Shown here piece by piece: positions 19,030-59,226 of a stretch of 64,000 bases of DNA (position 1 is its first letter; every line of letters begins with the position of its first letter). The notes under the pieces were generated by a model. That model was not told the origin of the DNA. It was given only the letters and a program-made list of their open reading frames with translations, and did no database searches. A program made the position numbers and the translations under genes. Source of the stretch: Eledone cirrhosa (Eukaryota); the NCBI GenBank assembly GCA_964016885.1, contig OZ024743.1:77562001-77626000 (forward strand), written 5' to 3'.

Positions 19030-19640
19030 TTTCACTTTAAAATATTATTTTAAAATCATGTTCACTTAAAAATAATTTTTAAATAATTAAAATATACACA
19101 GACATGTAGATATTGTGAAATGAAAGTAGAAGGCCCATATATATATACGTGTGTGTATGTATATATATAAATGTGTGTGTTTGTATATATATATATTGTA
19201 TTATGTATGTCATTAACATACACTACGTATCACCTAATACCACTTCTACTCTTCAATCCTCTATATCTATATTTATAACCAGGTATTCCCCACCAATCGT
19301 GTTATCTATAGTTAATTTGCTACACCTTGATCTGTATTTTATTTCTTCTGTATTTTGATTTCTTCGATATGTTCTTATTTACTTCCATTTTTACTCCCAC
19401 AATTACCACCCTGGGTATGACAGCATTCTAGTCATTTTATTCTCCTTATATACTTATGTTTGTACTCATCTGTTACCTAAAATTAGCACACGAGACTAGA
19501 ATATTCGTTTCTGTACCCTTTATATCTGTTTATCTTTAATTACTCCCCCTACCCACACAGGACTTACACTGCATATAAATTCAAATAACCCGGACTAACT
19601 TGGGATTGAATATAGTCTTTTAGCTGATTTATAGTAATGA

Positions 19641-19980
19641 CTAGCAGAATGGCCGGGCGTTGCTCGGGATTCTAAACATAGATTGGCATGTTTATCCCTC
19701 TTCTCTGAAATAGTACAGGCATGACCTAAAAGCAGGACGAAATACACTAATACTAACAGGTAGAGTAATGAGTAAATTCGTCAGTGATGCATGTGATTTC
19801 CCAACCGTTGACGATGTAATTACTGGCCTTGTGCCAAAAGTAGTGGGACTTTTTGGGTGGCATATCGTCAGGAACAATGACGATAGCCCGCCTGTGCTTT
19901 CGTGAAATAAATACGTTTGTTTATATTTTGTTTTTGTGTATGCAAAAATATCTGTACACGAATATTTATATATATATATA
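19641..19980 (-). mobile_element. Non-autonomous Helitron family H2 (CTAG ends also at 25580, 31548, 35869, 41797, 45403)
   Basis: Minus strand 3' end cccgagc-aac-gcccgg-ccattctg-CTAG-T; other end merges into (TA)n; carries a captured SINE piece (ctacttttggcacaaggccag). Confidence 0.65.
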
Positions 19981-20024
19981 TTTCCGGTCCAGACCCATGC
20001 TAGCGTGGAAGATGGACGTTAAAC

Positions 20025-20096
<72 letters not shown>

Positions 20097-20418
20097 GTGT
20101 ACATATTTATATTTAAGTAACAGCCGTACTAAGAGTGGGAAATGAAATTTCGTTTCATTTTTTCAGTTATATATATATAATATTAAGGATACTATTTATG
20201 GTTATGTATATACTAACACTTTTTATAGTTATGTATATTTTAAACCCTAAACAGTGAAGGTCAGTATTTTATTACTACCTTATTACCAGTAAGATAAATA
20301 GCTCAATGTAATAATATCAGTTGTTCTACAGGGCACTTATATAGAATATAGCCATAATGCAATACCTAGCAACCAGACTTCTACACAACATAATAACCGG
20401 CAGGTTAACATCTAAAAT

Positions 20419-20800
20419 AATTGTAATTGTAGATCTAATAGAACCTGCCCTTTAGATAAAAAACTGCTTAATCAAGGACATCATATACTCATGCACCGTC
20501 ATAACTAGCAACTCTTCTGAAACCTATATAGGCTCTACTTCGAACTGCTTCAAAACCAGATACAATTCACACCTCCATACTTTAAAAAAAAACACAGTTT
20601 AGCCAACTCCACTTCACTATCTAGCTACATACACTATCTAAAAACTAGAAATAGATCTTATACACTTAAATGGGAAGTGATAGATAAGGCGGCATCGTAC
20701 AAATCACCTAATAAATTCTGTAACCTCTGTCTACTAGAGACCCATACTATAATCTTGTCAAATATAACCTCCTTAATAAAAAACCGGCACTCCTTCCAAA
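20419..20800 (+). pseudogene. Second PLE GIY-YIG endonuclease remnant (Naiad-like)
   Basis: Manual translation across frameshifts: NCNCRSNRTCPLD..CL..DIIYSCTV..ETYIGSTSNCFKTRYNSH..STSLSSYIHYLK..YTLKWEVIDKA..Y..FCNLCLLE. Confidence 0.85.
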
Positions 20801-22312
20801 ACTTTAAACCCAATATATAACAATGTCAGACTTGAACCCATCACCACTTCTAACACCACACCCCAAGGGCACACCTTACACCACAACTCCACAGTCTCTG
20901 AGCCACCCTATCTCGACACAAATCATTCCATCTATCTATAACTTTATACCCTAGAAATATCCCCATAAACACCTACTTTTAGTATAATTACTTTCAATTA
21001 CTTAGAATTATATAGTGATACAATACAGTCTATATAAGCTTTAAATACCAGATTCGACAATGAATTATATATGCAATTGTATTTATATGTATGGAGTGAT
21101 AACATTGGATATATATAAGATTAATTTATTAACATAAGAGATCTGTCTAACTTATATGTTGAGTGCAATGAATTATGTATGAATAGTATGTGAGTTATAT
21201 ATGCAAGTATAACTTGATGGATAGATTAATGACATTGTAAATGAGGGATGTATTTGTCTGCCCTAGAGATGTATTTGGCTTTGCCATGCAAACAACCATA
21301 CGCTGCTCCAGAACTTACCAGGGGTTATGTAGACATAATTCTAATAGGTCCCCTGACATGTTCTGAGAGTAAACTACATTTGCAGTGAACTTTGATATAA
21401 AGATATGGCTCTTTGTATGGAGTATTCAGTTATAGCACTGTATGATAGGGAGTAATCATCCTAATATAGATACCTTTAGTACATCATGATAGAGTAGACT
21501 GTATTTAAAATTGGAAACTTGATATAAATATATAACCGTCTATATAAGGGACTCAATTGAGGCGCCTTATAATGTTAGAACAATGAATTTAGTCATGGAA
21601 ATCAGCTAGTTACCTCCCCTTACGCATTAACTCCCCTTAATTACACACATACTTCCGGATAATAAACCGCTGTAAATTCTCGCAGCAGAATCAACCTATT
21701 CTATAAATTTGGATTAAATAACACTGAACCGCAAAAAGCTAAAATAATTTAATTCAATGCATCTAACATCCAATACGGAATGTTCGTTACTTATGTGATG
21801 GATGTAAATACTATTTATTACTTTTCCTGAATGTGAAAATGGTGGTGGATACGAAAACCATAACTTTCTTTTGCTTCTCCTTTTTATTTTTATTTTCCTG
21901 CACACATACTTTTTTTTATTATATACAAAAAATACCTTACCACTACAACCACCATAATACTCTTACTTACCCGATTAAAGTGCTTGTATTACATGTAACA
22001 CCCTGCCACACAATAATCATATATAAATGAGACACACTTGCATGCCCCACGTGTAACTAACGCATACACTAACTACTACATCTGACTAACAAACTATCCT
22101 CTTGCTTTATCTGTGTTAACTGCCGAATGTATTTTAATTTTGTTTTAATTTTGTTTTAATTTTAATTTTGATTTTGATTTTGAATTTGAATTGCTATACA
22201 GAAATAATATAGTATAATATATGTCACTCCACTGTACATCAATATATATATATGTATCTGTATGTCTCTTGCGTTGGAAAGGAGGTCAATTACGTGTACA
22301 AATATTGAAAAA

Positions 22313-22359
22313 TGCTCCGAAGAAACCAAGCCAAGGTTTGGATGAAACAATTGTAAGTG
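22313..22359 (+). ncRNA. Degenerate hammerhead-like fold (CCGAAGA core)
   Basis: UGCU-CCGAAGA-aaCCAAGC-caag-GUUUGGau-GAAA-CAAUUG-UA-AGUG; palindromic stem III, weak stem I. Confidence 0.4.
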
Positions 22360-22429
22360 AATAAATGCTTTGAACATAGCTTTGATTCTTGTGAATTCTA
22401 TATATATATATATATAAATAACAGATTAA

Positions 22430-22480
22430 AGTTTAAGCAAAGAATCGCTGCTTTCACCCTTAACGGGATCTTCTGAAACT
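22430..22480 (-). ncRNA. Hammerhead-like fold with CAGAAGA core (array copy 1)
   Basis: AGUUU-CAGAAGA-UCCC-GUUAA-GGGU-GAAA-GCA-gcgauucuu-UGC-UU-AAACU. Confidence 0.55.
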
Positions 22481-22923
22481 AAAAAAAAAATCAATCTGTG
22501 AATGCAGAAGTAAATATTTCGAAAAACGTTGCAACCGAAGGAAAACAGGAAGACGATACTTTGGTTCGTGAAGACGTTCCCTGGCAATGAACGGAAAATA
22601 GCGAAGATAATACGTCAGCAATGAGAACAATATTTGTCATAATGTTGTAATGCAGACAGCTAGACATACAGACAGATCTTATAAGGGCGCGACGTTATAG
22701 CTATGTATCTATCTAAAAGGACAGACTAAGAAAGACAGAGAGATCGCTAACCGGCGCCTAATGCGGTCCATAGGGCATTGAAAATGTGAAATATATTCTG
22801 CTCAAAATCACTCACACGACCATAAGTATTACATGTGTAAAGTTTGAAAAAAACCGGTTGGGTGGTTCTCGAGTTTTAGGGAGTCAGACAGACAGACATT
22901 CTCTGTTTTAGATATATTTATAA

Positions 22924-23565
22924 CTAGCAGTGGTACCCGGCGTTGCATGGGATAAGGTATTTTGGAATGCGGGCAGCCAACAGACCTAATCGTGGAAAAA
23001 CTGCATGCCTGGACAATATGTAAAGAAAATAAACCGAATACTCTGATGGCTGGATAATCTTTAAGATTTTCCTCTATGAAGCAGGAAAAATGCAGGTTTT
23101 CACCTAGGGGATCAAGAAAATGAATTTTTTTATGTGCATAATATGCCTTGAAAATTTGGGGAAAATCGGTTAGACGTAACGCCTCAAGAAAGACCTAAAA
23201 AGATTTTTAAAATGAAGTTTTTCACCTAATGCGGGCCCTAGGAATCAAAAAGTTGGATTTTCTTTACTCACGGTATGAAGAAGAGACTGACTAATACATA
23301 GTTACAATTTCAAGGAAATCGATCTGACGTAACGCCTCAAAAAAGCCCTAAAAAGCTAAAAAAAATGAAGTTTTTCACCTAATGCGGGCCCTTGGGAATC
23401 AAGAAGTTGGATTTTCTTTACTCACGGTATGAAGAAGAGACTGACTAATACATAGTTACAATTTCAAGGAAATCGATCTGACGTAACGCCTCAAAAAACC
23501 CCTAAAAAGCTGAAAAAACCGCAGTTTTTCACCTAATGCGGGCCCTAGGTATTCAAAAAGTTGAA
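22924..23565 (-). mobile_element. Non-autonomous Helitron H1 (5' end deleted) with ~152-bp internal repeats; CTAG ends also at 33061, 43340, 46200
   Basis: Minus strand 3' end cccatgc-aac-gccggg-taccactg-CTAG-T. Confidence 0.7.
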
Positions 23566-24232
23566 TTAAATATATAGCTATTAAATAATATTATGCCATG
23601 TAATAATAACATCAACGACAATAATAATAATAATGATGTATCTTGTTGTAACAGGGAAGGTATGGTTTGTTATATCAATAAATGTAAGTTGAATTGAGGT
23701 TCGGCTGTAAGTCTCAGGTTCTGTTGTTGCAGTGATAATAACTCTGGAAAGGATCTTTCCATATCACATTTAAAGGCAATGGCTGTGGTAAATAGGATCA
23801 CAAGATTTTACAATGTTTTTACATAATTTATTTACAAACCGATTACAAAGATTGAGCTGGGTTGAGCTGGCATGCCAAAACAAATGAATAAACAAATTAA
23901 GAGTTTAGAAGGTACGGTCAACTGGCTGAAATGCTGGCCAGGCTGCAGTTATGTTGTTGTCGTTACACATTGGCTAGTGGTTGCGGGGCAAAAGAAAAAT
24001 GGTTGTTTACCTTTCCACAGTTGAAGCAACAAGAGATATAATTTATCGAAAGTAGCGAGACAGTCTCAGTTTAGGCGGAAGTTGAAAACACATATCCGTG
24101 CCCGGATCACGATTGGCCTGACTTGGCCTATCAATGCGCCAAAGGAAAGTAGTTTGCTACAGTCTGTTTACTTATTTCATCAGATTTTTCTACTTTTAAA
24201 CTTCACACCACGGGTGTGAATAACTAGTAATC

Positions 24233-24435
24233 GTTTGGTACACGCGATGATCCGATGACTATGACGGCCTTCCCGCCTGCACGCCCAGCGCTTGAGTAGA
24301 TCAACCTTCCTAGAGTGCTTGGAAAAATAAACTTCTCTTTCTTTCTGTTAACGAAAATACTCGGAACGGCTGACACCCTCTTGGGCCCTGGGCGAGCTTG
24401 GAATCCGCCGCGTCCCCTGTTATTGACCGCCAAAC
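24233..24435 (+). ncRNA. Putative rod-like structured RNA, paralog A (copies start at 30201, 34522, 40450, 47864)
   Basis: Nested helices GUUUGGU/GCCAAAC, UUCC/GGAA, CGCCU/GGGCG, GCCCA/UGGGC, CCUUCC/GGAAcGG, GAGUG/UACUC; T5 run ~11 nt downstream. Confidence 0.4.
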
Positions 24436-24589
24436 AGCACTCTTAATTTTTAAGCTTAATCTTTAGTCCTAAATTTAAATTCTACCCTAAAAATGTATCA
24501 TGAATATCAAAAGTATATTTAACTTTTACATAAATGCCTCCTTCTACTAGTCCTTTAAATAAATCCCCCACTAGCGTGAATAACTAGTA

Positions 24590-24797
24590 ATCGTTTGGTA
24601 TACGCGATTATCAGCCGACGGTGACGGACTTCCCGCTAGCACATCCGGCGCTTGAGTCGGCTAACCTTCCTGGAGTGCTTGGAAAAATAAATGTATATTT
24701 CTTTCGGTAGACGAAAATACTCGGAACGGTTGACACGCCATTGGGCCCTTGGTGGGCTGGGAGTCGGTCACGTCACTGTTATTGACCGCCAAACGGT
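24590..24797 (+). ncRNA. Putative rod-like structured RNA, paralog B (core GUUUGGU at 24593; copies at 30561, 34882, 40810, 48224)
   Basis: AUCGUUUGGU/GCCAAACGGU, GUGAC/GUCAC, GACUUCC/GGGAGUC, CGCUA/UGGUG, GGCG/CGCC, UAACCUUCC/GGAAcGGUUG, GAGUG/UACUC; exactly 360 bp from paralog A. Confidence 0.45.
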
Positions 24798-25898
24798 ACT
24801 CTTAAATTTGGGCTTAATCTTACTTTTTTAATCTTAACTTTATATTCTACCCTGAAACCTTATTATGACTATCAATAATACATTTAACCGTTTCATAAAT
24901 GCTTCCTTCTGCAAATTCTTTAACTAAATCTCCCAATTTTTAACCTAAACCTTACTTTAGGCGGTCATTAACCTACACTACGTATCACCTGATATCACTC
25001 CTACTCTTCTATCCCCTATATCTATATTTATAACCGGGTATTCCCCAACCGTTTTATCTATTTTTTTATTTGCTACACCTTGATCTATATTTTATTTCTT
25101 CTGTATTTTGATTTCTTTGTATGTCATTAACATATTGTATTTTATATGTCATTAACATACACTACGTATCACCTCATACCACTTCTACTCTTCAATCTTC
25201 TATATCTATATTTAAAACCAAGTATTCCCCACCAACCGTGTTATCTATAGTTAATTTGCTACACCTTGATCTGTATTTTATTTCTTCTGTATTTTGATTT
25301 CTTCGATATGTTCTTATTTACTTCCATTTTTACTCCCACAATTACCACCCTGGGTATGACAGCATTTTATTCCTTTAATTCTCCTCATATACTTATGCTT
25401 TTACTCATCTGTTACCTAAAATTAGCACACGAGACTAGAATATTCGTTTCTGTACCCTTTATATCTGTTTATCTTTAATTACTCTCCCTACCCACACAGG
25501 ACTTACACTGCATATAAATTCAAATAATCCGGACTAACTTGGGATTGAATATAGTCTTTTAGCTGATTTATAGTAATGACTAGCAGAATGGCCGGGCGTT
25601 GCTCGGGATTCTAAACATAGATTGGCATGTTTATCCCTCTTCTCTGAAATAGTACAGGCATGACCTAAAAGCAGGACGAAATACACTAAGACTAACAGGT
25701 AGAGTAATGAGTAAATTCGTCAGTGATGCATGTGATTTCCGAACCGTTGACTATGTAATTACTGGCCTTGTGCCAAAAGTAGTGGGACTTTTTGGGTGGC
25801 ATATCGTCAGGAACAATGACGATAGGCCGCCTGTGCTTTCGTGAAATAAATACGTTTGTTTATATTTTGTTTTTGTGTATGCAAAAATATCTGTACAC

Positions 25899-25989
<91 letters not shown>

Positions 25990-26048
25990 CCGTTCAGACC
26001 CATGCTAGCGTGGAAGATGAACGTTAAACAATGATGATGATGATGATG

Positions 26049-26125
<77 letters not shown>

Positions 26126-26129
<4 letters not shown>

Positions 26130-28312
26130 CAAAATCACACCTCTTCATCACCTCTGATGCCACTCCATCTTCTCCATGAGCCTTGCCCTCCTTGATCTTC
26201 TTCTTGGCTCTCTGAAGCTCCTCTCTGGTGAAGGGCTCTGTCTCAACATCCAGTTCCTCAAACAGCCGCCTGATCTCCCCAGTGCTCTGGGCTGTGGAGG
26301 GTGGCTCTCCTAGTAGGGTCCTAAAATGGTCTAGCCATTTCATCTTCCTATCCTCGGGCCCCGTTCCCTGGATCTGACTCGAACACCTTTTCTTCCTCCC
26401 TGTGATCTCGTTGATGATCATCCAGCTCTCCTTACATCCAGATCTGTCAACCGCTCTCTCCACACTTCTGATCTTCTCTATCAGTGCCTCCTCTCTGACC
26501 TCAGTGTAAGCGGTACAGAGCTCTTCCCTCATCACCTCCACAGTCTCCATCCTCTCCTCCGTAGGATCAGCATAGAATTAGTCCCTGGCAGCTTTCAGGT
26601 GTTCTCTGGCTGCACACACTTTTGGGTTTGCCGAACTGACGTGCTTCCCTTTGTTCTTTTTCCTCGGCACCAGGGTTTCACTTGCTTTCGCCACTGCATT
26701 GGTGAAGTGCCCGTACCTCCTCGTTACACTCTCCTCAGTCCATCCAATCTCTCTCTCCTCTGACTCTCCACACAGAGCACTAAACCTGTTTCTCACTTCC
26801 ACTGTGAACCTCTCCTGTAGCTTATCATCTTCCTTGAAAGCTCCCCAGTCATAGATTGTTCTCCGGGGCTGAGCCTTGCTCTTTCTTAAGCTCACGCGGA
26901 CCTCACTCATAACAAGCCGGGGTTCTGTAACGGGGCACTGGAGAAAGGAGTTGCCCCGAATCAGTGGAGGATCAGTAACATCGTCCCAGTGCCAAAGAAG
27001 GGAGATCTCTCTAACACCAACAACTACCGGGGGATCTCACTGACGTCACTTGTGGCAAAGACCCTCAACAGGATGATTCTTAACAGGATCCAGCCTGAGA
27101 TGGATAAGAAGCTCAGGGACAACCAGAACGGCTTCAGAGAGGGTAGATCAACGACCAGTCACATCCTGATGCTGAGGAGGATATTAGAGGGAGCTAGAGC
27201 AAAGTGCCTTCCTGCGGTCATGGTTTTCATTGACTTTAGGAAGGCCTTTGATTCTGTGGACCGTTACTGCCTGATGAAGATCTTACAGGCTTATGGAATC
27301 CCCAAGAGGATAGTGGACCTGATATCACTGCTCTACACCAACACCAAAGCTCAAGTCATTACACCTGATGGGATGACAGAGTTCTTTGAGATACTGGCTG
27401 GAATGCTCCAGGGAGATACATTGGCTCCCTACCTTTTTATCATCGTAGTGGACTATTGTATGCGCCTTGCACTGGAGAAACACCAGGACTCTGGCTTTAC
27501 TGTAGCACCGGCTCAGAGCAGGAGAGTTGGGGCGAAAAAGGTATCGGATGCTGAATTTGCCGACGACATAGTTTTGGTGACAAATACAGTGAAGGAGGCA
27601 GAGGATTTGATGCGGGAGGTTGAGACTGTGTCGATGAGTGTGGGGCTGAGAATGAATGCGACTAAAACAAAATATCTGGTAGAGAATGTTGAGAAGCCAG
27701 AGGGGATCACTAATGTAGGCGGGAAGCCGCTGGAATTGGTTGAGGACTTCCTGTATTTGGAAGCAAAGATTGGGACTACGGAGGATGATGTGGTTGAGAG
27801 GAAGAGCAAGGCCTGGGCGGCGTGCCACAGCTTGAGATCGGTGTGGAAGTCGGACCTTCGTAGAGACCTGAAAATCCGCCTCTTCATTGCTGTAGTGGAG
27901 TCTGTGCTGCTGTATGGGTCTGAGACTTGGACACTGACCAAGAAACTCACTCAGATGGTGGATGGGTGCTACACAAGAATGCTGAGGATGGCTCTGAACA
28001 TTAATCAGTATACACTGAGGATGAAAAACTCAGAGCTGTATGGGAGCATCCCAAAAGTCAGCTCAACAGTGACACAGAGGAGACTGAGGTTGGCTGGACA
28101 TGCTCACCGACATCCAGAGTTGACATTGCACTCGGTCCTCCTTTGGGAGACCCTACATGGACACACTAGAAGAGGAAGACCAAGGTTAACATATGTTGAT
28201 GCCCTAAGGACAGACACTGGTCTGTTGGAGATGCAGGATATGGCAGCGATAATGAGGGACAGAGACCGCTGGAGAGAACTCGTCCATGGATCTCGGGAAT
28301 TTTACCCGCCTT

Positions 28313-28314
<2 letters not shown>
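26126..28314 (+). mobile_element. RTE/RTEX-like LINE with 5' inversion (26126-~26920 minus; ~26921-28314 plus), inserted in (TA)n
   Basis: Minus part runs from RLVMSEVRVSL to [17 protein letters not shown]; plus part resumes FCNGALEKG..PKKGD; (TA)n on both sides. Confidence 0.9.
26989..28314 (+). CDS. RTE-type reverse transcriptase (truncated ORF)
   Basis: YRGISL, QNGFR, DFRKAFDSV, LQGDTLAP, FADD, LLYGSETW, RRLRLAGH, RRGRP. Confidence 0.88.
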
Positions 28315-28360
<46 letters not shown>

Positions 28361-28372
28361 ATAACAGATTAA

Positions 28373-28423
28373 AGTTTAAGCAAAGAATCGCTGCTTTCAC
28401 CCTTAACGGGATCTTCTGAAGCT
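28373..28423 (-). ncRNA. Hammerhead-like fold, CAGAAGA core (array copy 2; one stem I mismatch)
   Basis: As 22430 but stem I 5' strand is AGCUU. Confidence 0.5.
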
Positions 28424-28865
28424 AAAAAAAAATCAATCTGTGAATGCAGAAGTAAATATTTCGAAAAACGTTGCAACCGAAGGAAAACAGGAAGACGATA
28501 CTTTGGTTCGTGAAGACGTTCCCTGGCAATGAACGGAAAATAGCGAAGATAATACGTTAGCAATGAGAACAATATTTGTCATAATGTTGTAATGCAGACA
28601 GCTAGACATACAGACAGATCTTATAAGGGCTCGACGTTATAGCTATGTATCTATCTAAAAGGACAGACTAAGAAAGACAGAGAGATCGCTAACCGGCGCC
28701 TAATGCGGTCCATAGGGCATTGAAAATGTGAAATATTTTCTGCTCAAAATCATTCACACGACCATAAGTATTACATGTGTAAAGTTTGAAAAAAACCGGT
28801 TGGGTGGTTCTCGAGTTTTAGGGAGTCAGACAGACAGACATTCTCTGTTTTAGATATATTTATAA

Positions 28866-29467
28866 CTAACAGTGGTACCCGGCGTTGCATGGGATAAGGT
28901 ATTTTGGAACGCGGGCAGCCAACAGACCTAATCGTGGAAAAACTGCATGCCTGGACAATATGTAAAGAAAATAAACCGAATACTCTGATGGCTGGATAAT
29001 CTTTAAGATTTTCCTCTATGAAGCAAGAAAAATGTAGGTTTTCACCTAATGCGGGCCCTAGGGGATCAAAAAGTTGGATTTTCTTTACTCACGGTATGAA
29101 GAAGAGACTGACTAATACATAGTTACAATTTCAAGGAAATCGATCTGACGTAACGCCTCAAAAAACCCCTAAAAAGCTGAAAAAACCATAGTTTTTCACC
29201 TAATGCGGGCCCTAGGTATTCAAAAAGTTGGATTTTCTTTAATCGCGGTATGAAGAAGAGACTGACTAATACATAGTTACAATTTCAAGGAAATCGATCT
29301 GACGTAACGCCTCAAAAAACCTGACTTTTATGTGCATTACACTCCCTGAAACATAAGTAATACACATGTAAAGTTTGAAAAAAATCGGTCGGATACATCT
29401 CGAGTTTTAGGGATTCAAACTCTCTCTCTCTCTCACACACACACATACTCAATTTTATATATACAGA
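28866..29467 (-). mobile_element. Complete ~600-bp non-autonomous Helitron H1 (copy at 39115-39716)
   Basis: Minus strand: A|TCTGTATATATAAAA..(TG)n(GA)n..aactcgag...hairpin...TTAG|T (CTAG in sister copies); A|T insertion site, no TSD. Confidence 0.75.
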
Positions 29468-31704
29468 TAGTAGTTAATATTTGTATTTGTTTTTGTATCA
29501 ACAGAGGTCACCAATATAGCAGGCATTTAATAGCCACCAGTTTAGCTATTAAATAATATTATGCCATGTAATAATAACATCAACGACAATAATAATAATA
29601 ATGATGTATTTTGTTGTAACAGGAAAGGTATGGTTTGTTATATAAATAAATGTAAGTTGAATTGAGGTTCGGCTGTAAGTCTCAGATTCTGTTGCTGCAG
29701 TGATAATAACTCTGGAAAGGATCTTTCCATATCACATTTAAAGGCAATGGCTGTGGTAAATAGGATCACAAGATTTTACAATGTTTTTACATAATTTATT
29801 TACAAACCGATTACAAAGATTGAGCTGGGTTGAGCTGGCATGCCAAAACAAATGAATAAACAAATTAAGAGTTTAGAAGGTACGGTCAACTGGCTGAAAT
29901 GCTGACCAGGCCGCAGTTATGTTGTTGTCGTTACACATTGGCTAGTGGTTGCGGGGCAAAAGAAAAATGGTTGTTTACCTTTCCACAGTTGAAGCAACAA
30001 GAGATATAATTTATCGAAAGTAGCGAGACAGTCTCAGTTTAGGCGGAAGTTGAAAACACATATCCGTGCCCGGATCACGATTGGCCTGACTTGGCCTATC
30101 AATGCGCCAAAGGAAAGTAGTTTGCTACAGTCTGTTTACTTATTTCATCAGATTTTTCTACTTTTAAACTTCACACCACGGGTGTGAATAACTAGTAATC
30201 GTTTGGTACACGCGATGATCCGATGACTATGACGGCCTTCCCGCCTGCACGCCCAGCGCTTGAGTAGATCAACCTTCCTAGAGTGCTTGGAAAAATAAAC
30301 TTCTCTTTCTTTCTGTAAACGAAAATACTTGGAACGGCTGACACCCTCTTGGGCCCTGGGCGAGCTTGGAATCCACCGCGTCACCGGTTATTGACCACCA
30401 AACAGCACTCTTAATTTTTAAGCTTAATCTTTAGTCCTAAATTTAAATTCTACCCTAAAAATGTATCATGAATATCAAAAGTATATTTAACTTTTACATA
30501 AATGCCTCCTTCTACTAGTCCTTTAAATAAATCCCCCACTAGCGTGAATAACTAGTAATCGTTTGGTATACGCGATTATCAGCCGACGGTGACGGACTTC
30601 CCGCTAGCACATCCGGCGCTTGAGTCGGCTAACCTTCCTGGAGTGCTTGGAAAAATAAATGTATATTTCTTTCGGTAGACGAAAATACTCGGAACGGTTG
30701 ACACGCCATTGGGCCCTTGGTGGGCTGGGAGTCGGTCACGTCACTGTTATTGACCGCCAAACGGTACTCTTAAATTTGGGCTTAATCTTACTTTTTTAAT
30801 CTTAACTTTATATTCTACCCTGAAACCTTATTATGACTATCAATAATACATTTAACCGTTTCATAAATGCTTCCTTCTGCAAATTCTTTAACTAAATCTC
30901 CCAATTTTTTACCTAAACCTTACTTTAGGCGGTCATTAACCTACACTACGTATCACCTGATATCACTCCTACTCTTCTATCCCCTATATCTATATTTATA
31001 ACCGGGTATTCCCCAACCGTTTTATCTATTTTTTTATTTGCTACACCTTGATCTATATTTTATTTCTTCTGTATTTTGATTTCTTTGTATGTCATTAACA
31101 TATTGTATTTTATATGTCATCAACATACACTACGTATCACCTCATACCACTTCTACTCTTCAATCTTTTATATCTATATTTAAAACCAAGTATTCCCCAC
31201 CAACCGTGTTATCTATAGCTAATTTGCTACACATTGATCTGTATTTTATTTCTTCTGTATTTTGATTTCTTCGATATGTTCTTATTTACTTCCATTTTTA
31301 CTCCCACAATTACCACCCTGGGTATGACAGCATTTTATTCCTTTAATTCTCCTCATATACTTATGCTTTTACTCATCTGTTACCTAAAATTAGCACACGA
31401 GACTAGAATATTCGTTTCTGTACCCTTTATATCTGTTTATCTTTAATTACTCCCCCTACCCACACAGGACTCACACTGCATATAAATTCAAATAACCCGG
31501 ACTAACTTGGGATTGAATATAGTCTTTTAGCTGATTTATAGTAATGACTAGCAGAATGGCCGGGCGTTGCTCGGGATTCTAAACATAGATTGGCATGTTT
31601 ATCCCTCTTTTCTGAAACAGTACAGGCATGACCTAAAAGCAGGACGAAATACACTAAGACTAACAGGTAGAGTAATGAGTAAATTCGTCAATGATGCATG
31701 TGAT

Positions 31705-32119
31705 TTCCGAACCGTTGACTATGTAATTACTGGCCTTGTGCCAAAAGTAGTGGGACTTTTTGGGTGGCATATCGTCAGGAACAATGACGATAGGCCGCCT
31801 GTGCTTTCGTGAAATAAATACGTTTGTTTATATTTTGTTTTTGTGTATGCAAAAATATCTGTACACGAATATATATATATCTAGGAGCAGTTTAGGTATG
31901 ATACATGTTATTACTAATTATATCTAAATGTTTCTTCTCTCTTCATAATGTATTTTTAACTCTGATACTGGTCCAGTCTGATTCAACCGGATTGGTCTGT
32001 CCCAGTCATTCATTGAGCAACATCGGTAAGGTTGGCACCATTAACTCACGGTTGGGTGTGGATGCATTCATGTATATGTGTGTGTCCGCATGTATCTGTG
32101 TGTTTCTAAATATATTATA

Positions 32120-32166
<47 letters not shown>

Positions 32167-32325
32167 GTGTACAGATATTTTTGCATACACAAAAACAAAA
32201 TATAAACAAACGTATTTATTTCACGAAAGCACAGTCGGCCTATCGTCATTGTTCCTGACGATATGCCACCCAAAAAGTCCCACTACTTTTGGCACAAGGC
32301 CAGTAATTACATAGTCAACGGTTCG

Positions 32326-32328
<3 letters not shown>
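31705..32328. repeat. Inverted duplication (166-bp arms) of H2 sequence; repeated at ~41954-42573
   Basis: 31705-31870 is the reverse complement of 32163-32328, around a ~290-bp spacer ending in (TA)n. Confidence 0.9.
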
Positions 32329-32387
<59 letters not shown>

Positions 32388-32388
32388 G

Positions 32389-32449
<61 letters not shown>

Positions 32450-32500
32450 TATATATTTGCCGTCCAGACCCATGCTAGCGTGGAAGATGAACGTTAAACA

Positions 32501-32535
<35 letters not shown>

Positions 32536-32567
32536 ATATATATATATATAAAAAGATAACAGATTAA

Positions 32568-32618
32568 AGTTTAAGCAAAGAATCGCTGCTTTCACCCTTA
32601 ACGGGATCTTCTGAAACT
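32568..32618 (-). ncRNA. Hammerhead-like fold, CAGAAGA core (array copy 3)
   Basis: Same sequence as 22430-22480. Confidence 0.55.
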
Positions 32619-35600
32619 AAAAAAAAATCAATCTGTGAATTCAGAAGTAAATATTTCGAAAAACGTTGCAACCGAAGGAAAACAGGAAGACGATACTTTG
32701 GTTCGTGAAGACGTTCCCTGGCAATGAACGGAAAATAGCGAAGATAATACGTCAGCAATGAGAACAATATTTGTCATAATGTTGTAATGCAGACAGCTAG
32801 ACATACAGACAGATCTTATAAGGGCGCGACGTTATAGCTATGTATCTATCTAAAAGGACAGACTAAGAAAGACAGAGAGATCGCTAACCGGCGCCCAATG
32901 CGGTCCATAGTGCATTGAAAATTTGAAATATTTTCTGCTCAAAATCACTCACACGACCATAAGTATTACATGTGTAAAGTTTGAAAAAAACCGGTTGGGT
33001 GGTTCTCGAGTTTTAGGGAGTCAGACAGACAGACATTCTCTGTTTTAGATATATTTATAACTAGCAGTGGTACCCGGCGTTGCATGGGATAAGGTATTTT
33101 GGAACGCGGGCAGCCAACAGACCTAATCGTGGAAAAACTGCATGCCCGGACAATATGTAAAGAAAATAAACCGAATACTCTGATGGCTGGATAATCTTTA
33201 AGATTTTCCTCTATGAAGCAGGAAAAATGCAGGTTTTCACCTAGGGGATCAAGAAAATGAATTTGTTTATGTGCATAATATGCCTTGAAAATTTGGGGAA
33301 AATCGGTTAGACGTAACGCCTCAAGAAAGCCCTAAAAAGATTTTTAAAATGAAGTTTTTCACCTAATGCGGGCCCTAGGAATCAAAAAGTTGGATTTTCT
33401 TTACTCACGGTATGAAGAAGAGACTGACTAATACATAGTTACAATTTCAAGGAAATCGATCTGACGTAACGCCTCAAAAAAGCCCTAAAAAGCTAAAAAA
33501 ATGAAGTTTTTCACCTAATGCGGGCCCTAGGGAATCAAAAAGTTGGATTTTCTTTACTCACGGTATGAAGAAGAGACTGACTAATACATAGTTACAATTT
33601 CAAGGAAATCGATCTGACGTAACGCCTCAAAAAAGCCCTAAAAAGCTAAAAAAATGAAGTTTTTCACCTAATGCGGGCCCTTGGGAATCAAAAAGTTGGA
33701 TTTTCTTTACTCACGGTATGAAGAAGAGACTGACTAATACATAGTTACAATTTCAAGGAAATCGATCTGACGTAACGCCTCAAAAAACCCCTAAAAAGCT
33801 GAAAAAACCGCAGTTTTTCACCTAATGCGGGCCCTAGGTATTCAAAAAGTTGAATTAAATATATAGCTATTAAATAATATTATGCCATGTAATAATAACA
33901 TCAACGACAATAATAATAATAATGATGTATCTTGTTGTAACAGGGAAGGTATGGTTTGTTATATCAATAAATGTAAGTTGAATTGAGGTTCGGCTGTAAG
34001 TCTCAGGTTCTGTTGTTGCAGTGATAATAACTCTGGAAAGGATCTTTCCATATCACATTTAAAGGCAATGGCTGTGGTAAATAGGATCACAAGATTTTAC
34101 AATGTTTTTACATAATTTATTTACAAACCGATTACAAAGATTGAGCTGGGTTGAGCTGGCATGCCAAAACAAATGAATAAACAAATTAAGAGTTTAGAAG
34201 GTACGGTCAACTGGCTGAAATGCTGGCCAGGCTGCAGTTATGTTGTTGTCGTTACACATTGGCTAGTGGTTGCGGGGCAAAAGAAAAATGGTTGTTTACC
34301 TTTCCCCAGTTGAAGCAACAAGAGATATAATTTATCGAAAGTAGCGAGACAGTCTCAGTTTAGGCGGAAGTTGAAAACACATATCCGTGCCCGGATCACG
34401 ATTGGCCTGACTTGGCCTATCAATGCGCCAAAGGAAAGTAGTTTGCTACAGTCTGTTTACTTATTTCATCAGATTTTTCTACTTTTAAACTTCACACCAC
34501 GGGTGTGAATAACTAGTAATCGTTTGGTACACGCGATGATCCGATGACTATGACGGCCTTCCCGCCTGCACGCCCAGCGCTTGAGTAGATCAACCTTCCT
34601 AGAGTGCTTGGAAAAATAAACTTCTCTTTCTTTCTGTTAACGAAAATACTCGGAACGGCTGACACCCTCTTGGGCCCTGGGCGAGCTTGGAATCCGCCGC
34701 GTCCCCTGTTATTGACCGCCAAACAGCACTCTTAATTTTTAAGCTTAATCTTTAGTCCTAAATTTAAATTCTACCCTAAAAATGTATCATGAATATCAAA
34801 AGTATATTTAACTTTTACATAAATGCCTCCTTCTACTAGTCCTTTAAATAAATCCCCCACTAGCGTGAATAACTAGTAATCGTTTGGTATACGCGATTAT
34901 CAGCCGACGGTGACGGACTTCCCGCTAGCACATCCGGCGCTTGAGTCGGCTAACCTTCCTGGAGTGCTTGGAAAAATAAATGTATATTTCTTTCGGTAGA
35001 CGAAAATACTCGGAACGGTTGACACGCCATTGGGCCCTTGGTGGGCTGGGAGTCGGTCACGTCACTGTTATTGACCGCCAAACGGTACTCTTAAATTTGG
35101 GCTTAATCTTACTTTTTTAATCTTAACTTTATATTCTACCCTGAAACCTTATTATGACTATCAATAATACATTTAACCGTTTCATAAATGCTTCCTTCTG
35201 CAAATTCTTTAACTAAATCTCCCAATTTTTAACCTAAACCTTACTTTAGGCGGTCATTAACCTACACTACGTATCACCTGATATCACTCCTACTCTTCTA
35301 TCCCCTATATCTATATTTATAACCGGGTATTCCCCAACCGTTTTATCTATTTTTTTATTTGCTACACCTTGATCTATATTTTATTTCTTCTGTATTTTGA
35401 TTTCTTTGTATGTCATTAACATATTGTATTTTATATGTCATTAACATACACTACGTATCACCTCATACCACTTCTACTCTTCAATCTTCTATATCTATAT
35501 TTAAAACCAAGTATTCCCCACCAACCGTGTTATCTATAGTTAATTTGCTACACCTTGATCTGTATTTTATTTCTTCTGTATTTTGATTTCTTCGATATGT

Positions 35601-36187
35601 TCTTATTTACTTCCATTTTTACTCCCACAATTACCACCCTGGGTATGACAGCATTTTATTCCTTTAATTCTCCTCATATACTTATGCTTTTACTCATCTG
35701 TTACCTAAAATTAGCACACGAGACTAGAATATTCGTTTCTGTACCCTTTATATCTGTTTATCTTTAATTACTCTCCCTACCCACACAGGACTTACACTGC
35801 ATATAAATTCAAATAACCCGGACTAACTTGGGATTGAATATAGTCTTTTAGCTGATTTATAGTAATGACTAGCAGAATGGCCGGGCGTTGCTCGAGATTC
35901 TAAACATAGATTGGCATGTTTATCCCTCTTTTCTGAAACAGTACAGGCATGACCTAAAAGCAGGACGAAATACACTAATACTAACAGGTAGAGTAATGAG
36001 TAAATTCGTCAATGATACATGTGATTTCCCAACCGTTGACTATGTAATTACTGGCCTTGTGCCAAAAGTAGTGGGACTTTTTGGGTGGCATATCGTCAGG
36101 AACAATGACGATAGGCCGCCTGTGCTTTCGTGAAATAAATACGTTTGTTTATATTTTGTTTTTGTGTATGCAAAAATATCTGTACAC

Positions 36188-36248
<61 letters not shown>

Positions 36249-36307
36249 CCGTTCAGACCCATGCTAGCGTGGAAGATGAACGTTAAACAATGATGATGAT
36301 GGTGATG

Positions 36308-36350
<43 letters not shown>

Positions 36351-36354
<4 letters not shown>

Positions 36355-38537
36355 CAAAATCACACCTCTTCATCACCTCTGATGCCACTCCATCTTCTCC
36401 ATGAGCCTTGCCCTCCTTGATCTTCTTCTTGGCTCTCTGAAGCTCCTCTCTGGTGAAGGGCTCTGTCTCAACATCCAGTTCCTCAAACAGCCGCCTGATC
36501 TCCCCAGTGCTCTGGGCTGTGGAGGGTGGCTCTCCTAGTAGGGTCCTAAAATGGTCTAGCCATTTCATCTTCCTATCCTCGGGCCCCGTTCCCTGGATCT
36601 GACTCGAACACCTTTTCTTCCTCCCTGTGATCTCGTTGATGATCATCCAGCTCTCCTTACATCCAGATCTGTCAACCGCTCTCTCCACACTTCTGATCTT
36701 CTCTATCAGTGCCTCCTCTCTGACCTCAGTGTAAGCGGTACAGAGCTCTTCCCTCATCACCTCCACAGTCTCCATCCTCTCCTCCGTAGGATCAGCATAG
36801 AATTAGTCCCTGGCAGCTTTCAGGTGTTCTCTGGCTGCACACACTTTTGGGTTTGCCGAACTGACGTGCTTCCCTTTGTTCTTTTTCCTCGGCACCAGGG
36901 TTTCACTTGCTTTCGCCACTGCATTGGTGAAGTGCCCGTACCTCCTCGTTACACTCTCCTCAGTCCATCCAATCTCTCTCTCCTCTGACTCTCCACACAG
37001 AGCACTAAACCTGTTTCTCACTTCCACTGTGAACCTCTCCTGTAGCTTATCATCTTCCTTGAAAGCTCCCCAGTCATAGATTGTTCTCCGGGGCTGAGCC
37101 TTGCTCTTTCTTAAGCTCACGCGGACCTCACTCATAACAAGCCGGGGTTCTGTAACGGGGCACTGGAGAAAGGAGTTGCCCCGAATCAGTGGAGGATCAG
37201 TAACATCGTCCCAGTGCCAAAGAAGGGAGATCTCTCTAACACCAACAACTACCGGGGGATCTCACTGACGTCACTTGTGGCAAAGACCCTCAACAGGATG
37301 ATTCTTAACAGGATCCAGCCTGAGATGGATAAGAAGCTCAGGGACAACCAGAACGGCTTCAGAGAGGGTAGATCAACGACCAGTCACATCCTGATGCTGA
37401 GGAGGATATTAGAGGGAGCTAGAGCAAAGTGCCTTCCTGCGGTCATGGTTTTCATTGACTTTAGGAAGGCCTTTGATTCTGTGGACCGTTACTGCCTGAT
37501 GAAGATCTTACAGGCTTATGGAATCCCCAAGAGGATAGTGGACCTGATATCACTGCTCTACACCAACACCAAAGCTCAAGTCATTACACCTGATGGGATG
37601 ACAGAGTTCTTTGAGATACTGGCTGGAATGCTCCAGGGAGATACATTGGCTCCCTACCTTTTTATCATCGTAGTGGACTATTGTATGCGCCTTGCACTGG
37701 AGAAACACCAGGACTCTGGCTTTACTGTAGCACCGGCTCAGAGCAGGAGAGTTGGGGCGAAAAAGGTATCGGATGCTGAATTTGCCGACGACATAGTTTT
37801 GGTGACAAATACAGTGAAGGAGGCAGAGGATTTGATGCGGGAGGTTGAGACTGTGTCGATGAGTGTGGGGCTGAGAATGAATGCGACTAAAACAAAATAT
37901 CTGGTAGAGAATGTTGAGAAGCCAGAGGGGATCACTAATGTAGGCGGGAAGCCGCTGGAATTGGTTGAGGACTTCCTGTATTTGGAAGCAAAGATTGGGA
38001 ATACGGAGGATGATGTGGTTGAGAGGAAGAGCAAGGCCTGGGCGGCGTGCCACAGCTTGAGATCGGTGTGGAAGTCGGACCTTCGTAGAGACCTGAAAAT
38101 CCGCCTCTTCATTGCTGTAGTGGAGTCTGTGCTGCTGTATGGGTCTGAGACTTGGACACTGACCAAGAAACTCACTCAGATGGTGGATGGGTGCTACACA
38201 AGAATGCTGAGGATGGCTCTGAACATTAATCAGTATACACTGAGGATGAAAAACTCAGAGCTGTATGGGAGCATCCCAAAAGTCAGCTCAACAGTGACAC
38301 AGAGGAGACTGAGGTTGGCTGGACATGCTCACCGACATCCAGAGTTGACATTGCACTCGGTCCTCCTTTGGGAGACCCTACATGGACACACTAGAAGAGG
38401 AAGACCAAGGTTAACATATGTTGATGCCCTAAGGACAGACACTGGTCTGTTGGAGATGCAGGATATGGCAGCGATAATGAGGGACAGAGACCGCTGAAGA
38501 GAACTCGTCCATGGATCTCGGGAATTTTACCCGCCTT

Positions 38538-38539
<2 letters not shown>
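36351..38539 (+). mobile_element. Duplicate of the 5'-inverted RTE LINE
   Basis: Offset 10225 from 26126, same inversion junction; TGG>TGA nonsense change at 38495-38497 shortens the ORF (37214-38497). Confidence 0.9.
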
Positions 38540-38609
<70 letters not shown>

Positions 38610-38621
38610 ATAACAGATTAA

Positions 38622-38672
38622 AGTTTAAGCAAAGAATCGCTGCTTTCACCCTTAACGGGATCTTCTGAAGCT
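38622..38672 (-). ncRNA. Hammerhead-like fold, CAGAAGA core (array copy 4)
   Basis: Same sequence as 28373-28423. Confidence 0.5.
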
Positions 38673-41600
38673 AAAAAAAAATCAATCTGTGAATGCAGAA
38701 GTAAATATTTCGAAAAACGTTGCAACCGAAGGAAAACAGGAAGACGATACTTTGGTTCGTGAAGACGTTCCCTGGCAATGAACGGAAAATAGCGAAGATA
38801 ATACGTTAGCAATGAGAACAATATTTGTCATAATGTTGTAATGCAGACAGCTAGACATACAGACAGATCTTATAAGGGCGCGACGTTATAGCTATGTATC
38901 TATCTAAAAGGACAGACTAAGAAAGACAGAGAGATCGCTAACCGGCGCCTAATGCGGTCCATAGGGCATTGAAAATGTGAAATATTTTCTGCTCAAAATC
39001 ATTCACACGACCATAAGTATTACATGTGTAAAGTTTGAAAAAAACCGGTTGGGTGGTTCTCGAGTTTTAGGGAGTCAGACAGACAGACATTCTCTGTTTT
39101 AGATATATTTATAACTAACAGTGGTACCCGGCGTTGCATGGGATAAGGTATTTTGGAACGCGGGCAGCCAACAGACCTAATCGTGGAAAAACTGCATGCC
39201 TGGACAATATGTAAAGAAAATAAACCGAATACTCTGATGGCTGGATAATCTTTAAGATTTTCCTCTATGAAGCAGGAAAAATGTAGGTTTTCACCTAATG
39301 CGGGCCCTAGGGGATCAAAAAGTTGGATTTTCTTTACTCACGGTATGAAGAAGAGACTGACTAATACATAGTTACAATTTCAAGGAAATCGATCTGACGT
39401 AACGCCTCAAAAAACCCCTAAAAAGCTGAAAAAACCATAGTTTTTCACCTAATGCGGGCCCTAGGTATTCAAAAAGTTGGATTTTCTTTACTCACGGTAT
39501 GAAGAAGAGACTGACTAATACATAGTTACAATTTCAAGGAAATCGATCTGACGTAACGCCTCAAAAAACCTGACTTTTATGTGCATTACACTCCCTGAAA
39601 CATAAGTAATACACATGTAAAGTTTGAAAATAATCGGTCGGATACATCTCGAGTTTTAGGGATTCAAACTCTCTCTCTCTCTCACACACACACATACTCA
39701 ATTTTATATATACAGATAGTAGTTAATATTTGTATTTGTTTTTGTATCAACAGAGGTCACCAATATAGCAGGCATTTAATAGCCACCAGTTTAGCTATTA
39801 AATAATATTATGCCATGTAATAATAACATCAACGACAATAATAATAATAATGATGTATTTTGTTGTAACAGGAAAGGTATGGTTTGTTATATAAATAAAT
39901 GTAAGTTGAATTGAGGTTCGGCTGTAAGTCTCAGATTCTGTTGCTGCAGTGATAATAACTCTGGAAAGGATCTTTCCATATCACATTTAAAGGCAATGGC
40001 TGTGGTAAATAGGATCACAAGATTTTACAATGTTTTTACATAATTTATTTACAAACCGATTACAAAGATTGAGCTGGGTTGAGCTGGCATGCCAAAACAA
40101 ATGAATAAACAAATTAAGAGTTTAGAAGGTACGGTCAACTGGCTGAAATGCTGACCAGGCCGCAGTTATGTTGTTGTCGTTACACATTGGCTAGTGGTTG
40201 CGGGGCAAAAGAAAACTGGTTGTTTACCTTTCCACAGTTGAAGCAACAAGAGATATAATTTATCGAAAGTAGCGAGACAGTCTCAGTTTAGGCGGAAGTT
40301 GAAAACACATATCCGTGCCCGGATCACGATTGGCCTGACTTGGCCTATCAATGCGCCAAAGGAAAGTAGTTTGCTACAGTCTGTTTACTTATTTCATCAG
40401 ATTTTTCTACTTTTAAACTTCACACCACGGGTGTGAATAACTAGTAATCGTTTGGTACACGCGATGATCCGATGACTATGACGGCCTTCCCGCCTGCACG
40501 CCCAGCGCTTGAGTAGATCAACCTTCCTAGAGTGCTTGGAAAAATAAACTTCTCTTTCTTTCTGTAAACGAAAATACTTGGAACGGCTGACACCCTCTTG
40601 GGCCCTGGGCGAGCTTGGAATCCACCGCGTCACCGGTTATTGACCACCATACAGCACTCTTAATTTTTAAGCTTAATCTTTAGTCCTAAATTTAAATTCT
40701 ACCCTAAAAATGTATCATGAATATCAAAAGTATATTTAACTTTTACATAAATGCCTCCTTCTACTAGTCCTTTAAATAAATCCCCCACTAGCGTGAATAA
40801 CTAGTAATCGTTTGGTATACGCGATTATCAGCCGACGGTGACGGACTTCCCGCAAGCACATCCGGCGCTTGAGTCGGCTAACCTTCCTGGAGTGCTTGGA
40901 AAAATAAATGTATATTTCTTTCGGTAGACGAAAATACTCGGAACGGTTGACACGCCATTGGGCCCTTGGTGGGCTGGGAGTCGGTCACGTCACTGTTATT
41001 GACCGCCAAACGGTACTCTTAAATTTGGGCTTAATCTTACTTTTTTAATCTTAACTTTATATTCTACCCTGAAACCTTATTATGACTATCAATAATACAT
41101 TTAACCGTTTCATAAATGCTTCCTTCTGCAAATTCTTTAACTAAATCTCCCAATTTTTTACCTAAACCTTACTTTAGGCGGTCATTAACCTACACTACGT
41201 ATCACCTGATATCACTCCTACTCTTCTATCCCCTATATCTATATTTATAACCGGGTATTCCCCAACCGTTTTATCTATTTTTTTATTTGCTACACCTTGA
41301 TCTATATTTTATTTCTTCTGTATTTTGATTTCTTTGTATGTCATTAACATATTGTATTTTATATGTCATCAACATACACTACGTATCACCTCATACCACT
41401 TCTACTCTTCAATCTTTTATATCTATATTTAAAACCAAGTATTCCCCACCAACCGTGTTATCTATAGCTAATTTGCTACACATTGATCTGTATTTTATTT
41501 CTTCTGTATTTTGATTTCTTCGATATGTTCTTATTTACTTCCATTTTTACTCCCACAATTACCACCCTGGGTATGACAGCATTTTATTCCTTTTATTCTC

Positions 41601-42368
41601 CTCATATACTTATGCTTTTACTCATCTGTTACCTAAAATTAGCACACGAGACTAGAATATTCGTTTCTGTACCCTTTATATCTGTTTATCTTTAATTACT
41701 CCCCCTACCCACACAGGACTCACACTGCATATAAATTCAAATAACCCGGACTAACTTGGGATTGAATATAGTCTTTTAGCTGATTTATAGTAATGACTAG
41801 CAGAATGGCCGGGCGTTACTCGGGATTCTAAACATAGATTGGCATGTTTATCCCTCTTTTCTGAAACAGTACAGGCATGACCTAAAAGCAGGACGAAATA
41901 CACTAAGACTAACAGGTAGAGTAATGAGTAAATTCGTCAATGATGCATGTGATTTCCGAACCGTTGACTATGTAATTACTGGCCTTGTGCCAAAAGTAGT
42001 GGGACTTTTTGGGTGGCATATCGTCAGGAACAATGACGATAGGCCGCCTGTGCTTTCGTGAAATAAATACGTTTGTTTATATTTTGTTTTTGTGTATGCA
42101 AAAATATCTGTACACGAATATATATATATCTAGGAGCAGTTTAGGTATGATACATGTTATTACTAATTATATCTAAATGTTTCTTCTCTCTTCATAATGT
42201 ATTTTTAACTCTGATACTGGTCCAGTCTGATTCAACCGGATTGGTCTGTCCCAGTCATTCATTGAGCAACATCGGTAAGGTTGGCACCATTAACTCACGG
42301 TTGGGTGTGGATGCATTAATGTATATGTGTGTGTCCGCATGTATCTGTGTGTTTCTAAATATATTATA

Positions 42369-42411
<43 letters not shown>

Positions 42412-42572
42412 GTGTACAGATATTTTTGCATACACAAAAACAAAATATAAACAAACGTATTTATTTCACGAAAGCACAGTCGGCCTATCGTCATTGTTCC
42501 TGACGATATGCCACCCAAAAAGTCCCACTACTTTTGGCACAAGGCCAGTAATTACATAGTCAACGGTTCGGA

Positions 42573-42654
<82 letters not shown>

Positions 42655-42655
42655 G

Positions 42656-42728
<73 letters not shown>

Positions 42729-42779
42729 TATATATTTGCCGTCCAGACCCATGCTAGCGTGGAAGATGAACGTTAAACA

Positions 42780-42814
<35 letters not shown>

Positions 42815-42846
42815 ATATATATATATATATAAAGATAACAGATTAA

Positions 42847-42897
42847 AGTTTAAGCAAAGAATCGCTGCTTTCACCCTTAACGGGATCTTCTGAAACT
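42847..42897 (-). ncRNA. Hammerhead-like fold, CAGAAGA core (array copy 5)
   Basis: Same sequence as 22430-22480. Confidence 0.55.
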
Positions 42898-45721: not shown

Positions 45722-45773
<52 letters not shown>

Positions 45774-48912: not shown

Positions 48913-48979
48913 AATAAATCTTTAAGGAATTACACCAGCCCAGCCTCCCTCCGTTATTTTATATTAGTGGTACTAATTT

Positions 48980-59202: not shown

Positions 59203-59226
59203 GTTGGTGGTGAAGAGAAAAGGCAC

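Follow-up and report, generated by a model that had tools for sequence, protein, structure and literature searches.

The stretch of DNA analysed in this work (the window) comprises 64,000 nucleotides of Eledone cirrhosa contig OZ024743.1 (assembly GCA_964016885.1, positions 77,562,001 to 77,626,000 of the forward strand). A sequence-only reading had drawn attention to two rod-like sequences 360 bp apart, and these indeed lie at 24233-24435 and 24593-24794 as the first of five rod pairs (10 copies) in the window. Consensus positions in the following list refer to subfamily S1, one of the subfamilies described below.

19196..48966, plus strand: whole tandem array; one insertion with other repeats inside it and internal amplification
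19214..19630, plus strand: 5'-truncated start of the single insertion (consensus 424-836; S1 consensus mapping)
24158..24958, plus strand: element body with rods (consensus 817-1619; S1 consensus mapping)
24208..24935, plus strand: 360-bp tandem duplication (rod plus AT-rich spacer), the origin of A and B
24233..24435, plus strand: rod A of array copy 1, a decayed A paralog with 18 differences from the S1A consensus
24313..24362, plus strand: 50-nt apical core of A, a predicted three-way junction with both hairpins damaged here
24326-24331, plus strand: AAUAAA loop of the first hairpin of the A core
24593..24794, plus strand: rod B of array copy 1, 15 differences from the S1B consensus
24673..24722, plus strand: apical core of B, in which four private changes disrupt the first hairpin
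30201..30762, plus strand: array copy 2 (A 30201-30403, B 30561-30762)
34522..35083, plus strand: array copy 3 (A 34522-34724, B 34882-35083)
40450..41011, plus strand: array copy 4 (A 40450-40652, B 40810-41011)
47864..48425, plus strand: array copy 5 (A 47864-48066, B 48224-48425)
48556..48966, plus strand: element 3' end, a pseudo-LTR (consensus 1739-2151, after an internal deletion)
48729..48774, plus strand: GC hairpin close to where the pseudo-LTR has its 5' edge
48855..48912, plus strand: type I minimal hammerhead motif with a predicted cut after 48908; helices II and III are mutated in this copy

The window holds one old insertion of a mobile element, the middle of which has been amplified five times. 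The insertion is broken near consensus 817-836 by other repeats; its start piece (consensus 424-836) recurs at 25153, 31122, 35442, 41371 and 44976, its body (consensus 817-1619) recurs at 30126, 34447, 40375 and 47789, and the pseudo-LTR piece occurs only once within the window, where the element ends at 48966. Contig depth, a rough measure, amounts to 28-42 over the rods, 36-45 over the first piece (19566-19669) and 5-9 over the single 3' end; the ratio between rods and 3' end fits about five copies, and an assembly artefact was rejected as the source of the array. The ten copies counted earlier are confirmed, but since they stem from the tandem amplification of one insertion and differ by only 0-7 (A) or 0-4 (B) bases, they count as one event.

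Several other repeats share the window. A high-copy repeat with 154-bp internal tandems (22418-23567 and its repeats; 25576-25610), the ends of which look Helitron-like, may have driven the tandem amplification. Two array units carry a LINE fragment with a reverse transcriptase domain (RVT_1; 26127-28314 and 36352-38539, 99.9% identical), both being part of a higher-order duplication of about 10 kb. Downstream of the array follow an LTR retrotransposon (50783-54961) with 359-bp terminal repeats that are 98.6% identical and with broken reverse transcriptase and integrase frames, and a minus-strand LINE (55765-61008) with two long open frames of 593 and 1153 aa, to which fragments at 5661-9298 and 61535-62845 are related. 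A 33-bp minisatellite is present in 97 copies at 13826-17056 and a 48-bp satellite in 25 copies at 62806-64000, continuing past the window edge.

As described earlier, the rods are GC-rich in an AT-rich context (GC 0.51-0.53 versus 0.28), but the spacer belongs to the same 360-bp duplication, as 24208-24570 and 24568-24935 are 79% identical over 369 bp. The continuous helix 48252-48264/48390-48402 is present with 13 of 13 pairs, one of them G-U, and paralog A does pair less well than B on the plus strand (z -1.15 and -2.10, respectively). Folding of the window copies is weak, however, and shows no plus-strand advantage, the minus-strand z-scores being -2.35 (A) and -2.03 (B). The reported ratio of nine G-U to one A-C pair in B shrinks to 5:2 when counted in a strand-neutral manner and stands at 4:7 in window A; the excess becomes clear only in the subfamily consensuses, each of ten having 6-12 G-U against 2-5 A-C pairs. 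A-to-I editing was rejected as the origin of G-U pairs on account of symmetric post-insertion rates (A>G 0.018, T>C 0.020). The compensatory changes that had been quoted involve bases private to the window copy (T48C, G148C, C150T, G161T), the alternative helix in B is broken in subfamilies S2-S5, and the T runs viewed as Pol III terminators are not kept: after A there are four T in S1 and interrupted runs in S2, S4 and S5, and after B the run is deleted in S4 and S5. Both window A and window B copies are without the predicted tip, and neutral simulations produced rods as stable as the window rods in 19/60 and 22/60 cases for A and in 5/60 for B. As far as the window is concerned, the outcome is unremarkable: its copies are decaying passengers of a local tandem amplification.

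Outside the window, matches to rod B are dispersed. A DNA search of the 3.0-Gb genome yielded 1179 candidates, and among the 40 that were scored those outside the window are distributed over many contigs at 76-91% identity. Comparison of flanks delimits a unit of about 2.2-2.3 kb whose terminal direct repeats are spaced by one unit length, that is pseudo-LTRs from partial tandems (L013, L010, L025, L057, L067, L075, L092). At 53 loci studied, best matches end at two fixed 3' points (11/53 and 25/53, 36/53 in total), the 3' ends mostly precede TA runs and the 5' ends vary; 16/53 loci carry an inverted piece, and many opposite-strand motif pairs occur besides. The hammerhead core CUGANGA was found in 49/56 copies and the full motif, from which cleavage is predicted, in 24/56; it has a 4-bp helix I, a long helix II and a palindromic helix III and lies downstream of the rod core in 27/30 position-ordered loci. 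Partial tandems, inversions, tails and microsatellite targets are features of Penelope-like elements (PLEs), and minimal hammerheads of PLEs match those seen here, as far as the accessible parts of the respective papers go (PMC8557442; PMC4209133). The element consensus gave no match to a PLE protein, its longest open reading frames (93-134 aa) are not common to the subfamilies, and a 176-aa frame has no match in Pfam. We are highly confident that the rods are a duplicated internal domain of a non-autonomous, ORF-less Penelope-like element of about 2.2 kb.

This element is present in about a thousand or more genomic copies: two patterns from the core of the rod, the first of them 23 nt long, have 945 and 1015 exact matches in the genome, reversed controls none, and the 3' half of the hammerhead has 7125. 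The core pattern returned 0 matches from metagenome contigs and 0 from viral contigs. Most of the unit is unstructured. Near the pseudo-LTR, 12/30 short copies start within 6 nt at the base of the GC hairpin (48729-48774; L137-L165), which may mark a transcript start or a reverse transcriptase stop; between S1 and S5 one A-U pair of this hairpin has turned into G-C through a double change. The element tail, which is absent from the window copy (e.g. L013, L092), contains, as read by eye, a 76-nt intron-like GT-AG stretch just after the first 3' end; it is present in S1-S5, and its donor-like motif appears altered in F8 and F9.

The window rods have no match in Rfam, and the undescribed RNA family that had been postulated survives in part. 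Consensus z-scores and simulations speak for a structured plus-strand RNA that falls into no catalogued family, but it is not a free-standing Pol III cargo of about 205 nt; it is an internal domain of a dispersed non-autonomous retroelement. The evidence comes from a set of 95 rods (55 sources, 9 partial rods skipped) grouped into S1-S5 with 3-16 copies each, later enlarged to 159 rods, with clusters of fewer than three copies left out of the consensuses. Diverged families with the same pseudo-LTR, F6-F10, were found via the 23-nt core pattern; F7, F10 and L185 rest on 3, 4 and 1 copies, respectively. A and B give ladders that mirror each other, starting from the duplication, and the window's subfamily adjoins this base (support 58-100, lowest around F10), and divergence from the consensus drops roughly along the ladder. 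A search for a single-rod family predating the duplication gave 7 matches, all within places already known as family copies.

All ten S consensuses are predicted to fold on the plus strand as a single rod with a three-way tip. Their z-scores range from -2.6 to -5.2 on this strand and from -0.4 to -2.1 on the other, so that the strand preference claimed before holds for the consensuses and not for the window copies. With DNA folding parameters the strands differ little. RNAalifold, suggested as a check, returned another, weak structure for 33 individual decayed copies and another inner fold for the ten S consensuses. The predicted tip consists of a 5-bp stem, a 5-bp hairpin with an AAUAAA loop and a 5-bp hairpin with a GUAAA loop. 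Of its 15 pairs one has undergone a double change (G-C to G-U to A-U), one a single change, and the others are invariant; as most tip pairs never vary, the fold rests on prediction and invariance, and covariation inside the tip is thin. Elsewhere in the rod, pairs 35-179, 75-141, 27-186 and 29-184 show double changes in S1-S5. When 33 real copies were compared with 500 shuffles, a control that ignores kinship, the double-change cells exceeded all shuffles; the count of pairs so affected did not, being reached in 354/500.

Selection has acted on tip sequence and rod stability while the lineage was transposing, but not once copies had inserted. On the A ladder 7 changes fell on the 50-nt core (450 site-steps) and 130 on the arms (1078), and mutations after insertion strike paired and unpaired sites equally (0.051 and 0.052). 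The three-way junction is part of the minimum free energy (MFE) structure of 12/12 A consensuses and of 0-2/60 simulations. In five of six A comparisons the MFE of the descendant was matched by 0-1/60 composition-matched simulations in which the same substitution types were used, in the sixth by 5/60. Between S1 and F8/F9 the core and the pseudo-LTR can still be aligned (82-86%), in contrast to most of the interior; rod ends vary between families and the arms shift register. The F families, having first been found by the core pattern, are biased toward core conservation. As a control for ascertainment, AAUAAA is kept in 26/30 loci picked via the 3' half of the core, and those copies picked by their hammerhead that are long enough for a rod have the core in 3/3 cases. 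This selection concerns the sense strand, a single one of the two redundant copies, and tip bases whether paired or not. The core of B decays from S5 onward (14 of 250), and in F9 (L171, L174, L188, L193, L207), the youngest family, another A-type rod at a distance of about 505 bp has taken the place of B, so that two intact tips are present again. As a separate observation, changes in the S1-S5 transposing lineage lean toward G+C (T>C 86 and A>G 55 versus C>T 36 and G>A 37), the reverse of decay after insertion.

A tip that stays nearly unchanged while the rest of the rod is rewritten is probably bound by a protein that assists the copying of the element. On balance we favour a model in which the rod domain is a protein-docking site that makes the element RNA likelier to be copied in trans. 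A long RNA would be transcribed from the pseudo-LTR, and the domain would fold on the element's own RNA as a rod with the predicted three-way-junction tip. Either a borrowed PLE enzyme or a host factor for export, stability or ribosome docking could then dock at the tip, and docking would raise the chance of copying in trans by a borrowed Penelope-type reverse transcriptase. Most insertions (27/30) are too short to include the rod, which suggests an action in the template RNA rather than in the inserted DNA. For the Anolis PLE, both protein binding and initiation have been placed immediately after the hammerhead, according to the accessible part of the report (PMC11167929). The corresponding tail of the pseudo-LTR shows strong conservation in this element, S1 and S5 differing at 2-4 positions per 100, and, by analogy, could fill the binding and initiation role alone; since the Anolis binding region lies after the hammerhead and that region is also conserved here, enzyme and host factor are both possible partners of the tip. 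A more far-reaching version, which we regard as rather doubtful, would see in the tip a new class of RNA element that captures the telomerase-type Penelope reverse transcriptase in the manner of the three-way junction of telomerase RNA, on a rod that later built an ENE triple-helix clamp anew and stepwise, the record of which would survive within a single animal genome.

Two ORF-bearing families in this genome were assigned to the PLE type by motifs and a sub-threshold GIY-YIG hit; neither has any sequence in common with the element nor a rod. A young autonomous PLE-type family (L106-L135) has intact 832-aa frames that are 97-98% identical and free of stops in 56/57 cases among the matches listed, followed by a 3' region of about 1.4 kb before a hammerhead-like motif. 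The window itself includes the 3' part of another PLE-type element (20350-22400) with a C-terminal ORF fragment, an extended 3' region and, near 22318-22352, a motif resembling a hammerhead. One locus (L178:1-1600, G000:C1:58.22 Mb) is a chimera: about 85 nt beyond its stop codon, an ORF-bearing PLE-type element passes into the 5' arm of a rod of family F9. It possibly reflects a template switch and is a weak hint at the mobilising family; it looked like the autonomous partner, but 39 other loci among the matches listed stop at the junction and the 14 that were tested are without a rod.

AAUAAA is the canonical poly(A) hexamer, and the tip might accordingly be read as a signal for 3' processing or its control, the loop recruiting or decoying the cleavage and polyadenylation machinery. 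The loop is exactly AAUAAA in 12/12 A consensuses and in the 26/30 independently picked copies mentioned above. This reading leaves the second hairpin and the linkers, which are equally fixed, unexplained; furthermore, a run of at least eight A within 60 nt downstream is found in 0/261 distinct cores, and full units have been copied through both rods. We judge such a signal to be unlikely.

A small three-way junction with invariant unpaired bases and variable arms is also the usual appearance of small ribozymes, and the host retroelement already possesses a hammerhead, which together raise the idea that the tip is an unrecognised self-cleaving ribozyme processing the element RNA. Neither the window rods nor their sister copies match any Rfam ribozyme at E-values up to 5-10, and of the 30 copies selected via the core's 3' half, none starts within the junction. 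The latter is a weak test because cleaved RNA need not be the template, as the part of the Anolis study consulted indicates (PMC11167929). A ribozyme is, in our estimation, quite unlikely.

The GC-rich island has the size of a small RNA. It could have originated as a host small-RNA gene or Pol III unit that was captured and now drives or rides the element, and non-autonomous elements often carry parts derived from small RNAs. Searches of Rfam (5S, SRP, U3, RNase P/MRP, 7SK, telomerase and known ribozymes) gave only sub-threshold chance hits and none to these families, ARAGORN detected no tRNA, and there is no tRNA-like head; in a comparison by hand with consensus features, HDV-like, SECIS, box C/D and tRNA-like readings did not fit either. 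Neither the T-run terminators nor the rod ends are kept among families, and 60 position-ordered core matches are element copies wherever the context is readable, with only 32 nt of element sequence downstream of the core at L332. An origin of this kind appears very unlikely to us.

The A rods of the sister families F6-F10 (e.g. L183, L184, L174) have runs of U facing each other beside G-C pairs, following an 18-nt deletion in the 3' arm. The resulting U-rich loop is present in the MFE structure of 15/22 F6, 13/26 F8 and 11/18 F9 copies (39/66 together), but in 0/6 S5A, 0/14 S5B and 0/13 F6B copies and in no S consensus. It sits 0.7-1.2 kb upstream of the pseudo-LTR, and its 5' run has grown from two to four U in two branches, F7-F9 and F10. 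A U-rich internal loop beside G-C pairs is the definition of an ENE, from which our criteria were taken as given in the accessible parts of two reviews (PMC7583470; PMC13541005), and ENEs promote retrotransposition of a plant element, as far as the part of that work available goes (PMC12501189). We tentatively consider an ENE as an added function of F6-F10 only, a possibility that we hold with less than even confidence. That the rod as a whole should be mainly an ENE-type stability element, with the U-rich loop clamping poly(A) and the tip as its cap, is a highly unlikely extension of these facing U runs in the younger A families F6, F8 and F9: the window's lineage and B do not have the loop, conservation of the tip long predates it, the runs (3-4 by 4-6 U) are short compared with the five triples in PAN, and the closing pairs in F9 are weak.

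There is next to no chance that the rod is a neutral decayed palindrome or DNA hairpin devoid of function, since the neutral evolution of the window copies, which would suit it, is set against core conservation, retained stability, the small strand difference under DNA parameters and a plus-strand excess of G-U over A-C in 10/10 consensuses; the rods are, moreover, internal and not terminal as in a MITE.

The preferred reading of the rod as a docking site has analogies in the way that other RNAs work. In Alu, a duplicated folded domain of a non-autonomous element, the dimer binding SRP9/14, helps to capture the enzyme, and the CR4/5 domain of telomerase RNA is a three-way junction bound by the telomerase-type reverse transcriptase. 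SRP and telomerase RNA have no sequence or Rfam match here, and the sizes of hairpins and the loops differ. Non-autonomous PLEs such as MRC1 of the Chlamys clade share with the element tandem pseudo-LTRs, 5' truncation, inverted 5' copies, microsatellite targets, an optional 3' extension and the lack of an ORF, and the hammerheads of PLE pseudo-LTRs are likewise of minimal type I with a short helix I, a long helix II and a palindromic helix III, in so far as these traits are covered by the accessible parts of the descriptions (PMC8557442; PMC4209133). According to the same parts, the 3' extension is 30-40 nt in published PLEs and about 150-170 nt here, and no counterpart of the duplicated rod with its conserved junction is described for them. 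A literature search, mainly of open-access papers and without Repbase, produced no such PLE domain and no ENEs in PLEs; supplements of PLE papers may list related elements. Animal non-LTR retrozymes are also non-coding, have a type I hammerhead and are likely moved by PLE proteins, but as far as the accessible parts of the reports state they are 170-400 nt long and form multimeric arrays (PMC7229834; 10.64898/2026.07.22.740005), whereas the element studied here is about 2.2 kb long, dispersed and mostly unstructured with truncated copies. Membership among them was rejected on the size of the monomer (2.2-2.3 kb) and the largely unstructured unit.

With ENEs (KSHV PAN, MALAT1, those of plant and fungal transposable elements and Evade) the F6-F10 rods share a U-rich loop in a retroelement RNA, as judged from the accessible parts of the literature (PMC7583470; PMC13541005; PMC12501189); the U runs are shorter here, and the window's subfamily has none. 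Should the loop prove to be an ENE, it would document, with dates, the gradual emergence of a triple-helix stability element. By these comparisons we are dealing with a known kind of element that carries an uncatalogued, selected RNA domain. It bears on the question of which cis-acting RNA signals PLEs use beyond the hammerhead and the initiation region and of how non-coding elements capture a Penelope-type enzyme; a first in vitro PLE system has recently become available, as the part of that report at hand describes (PMC11167929). The family offers a compact candidate of 50 nt with built-in controls in the form of ten subfamilies arranged as a ladder, of a redundant paralog in which the tip is lost, and of decayed copies.
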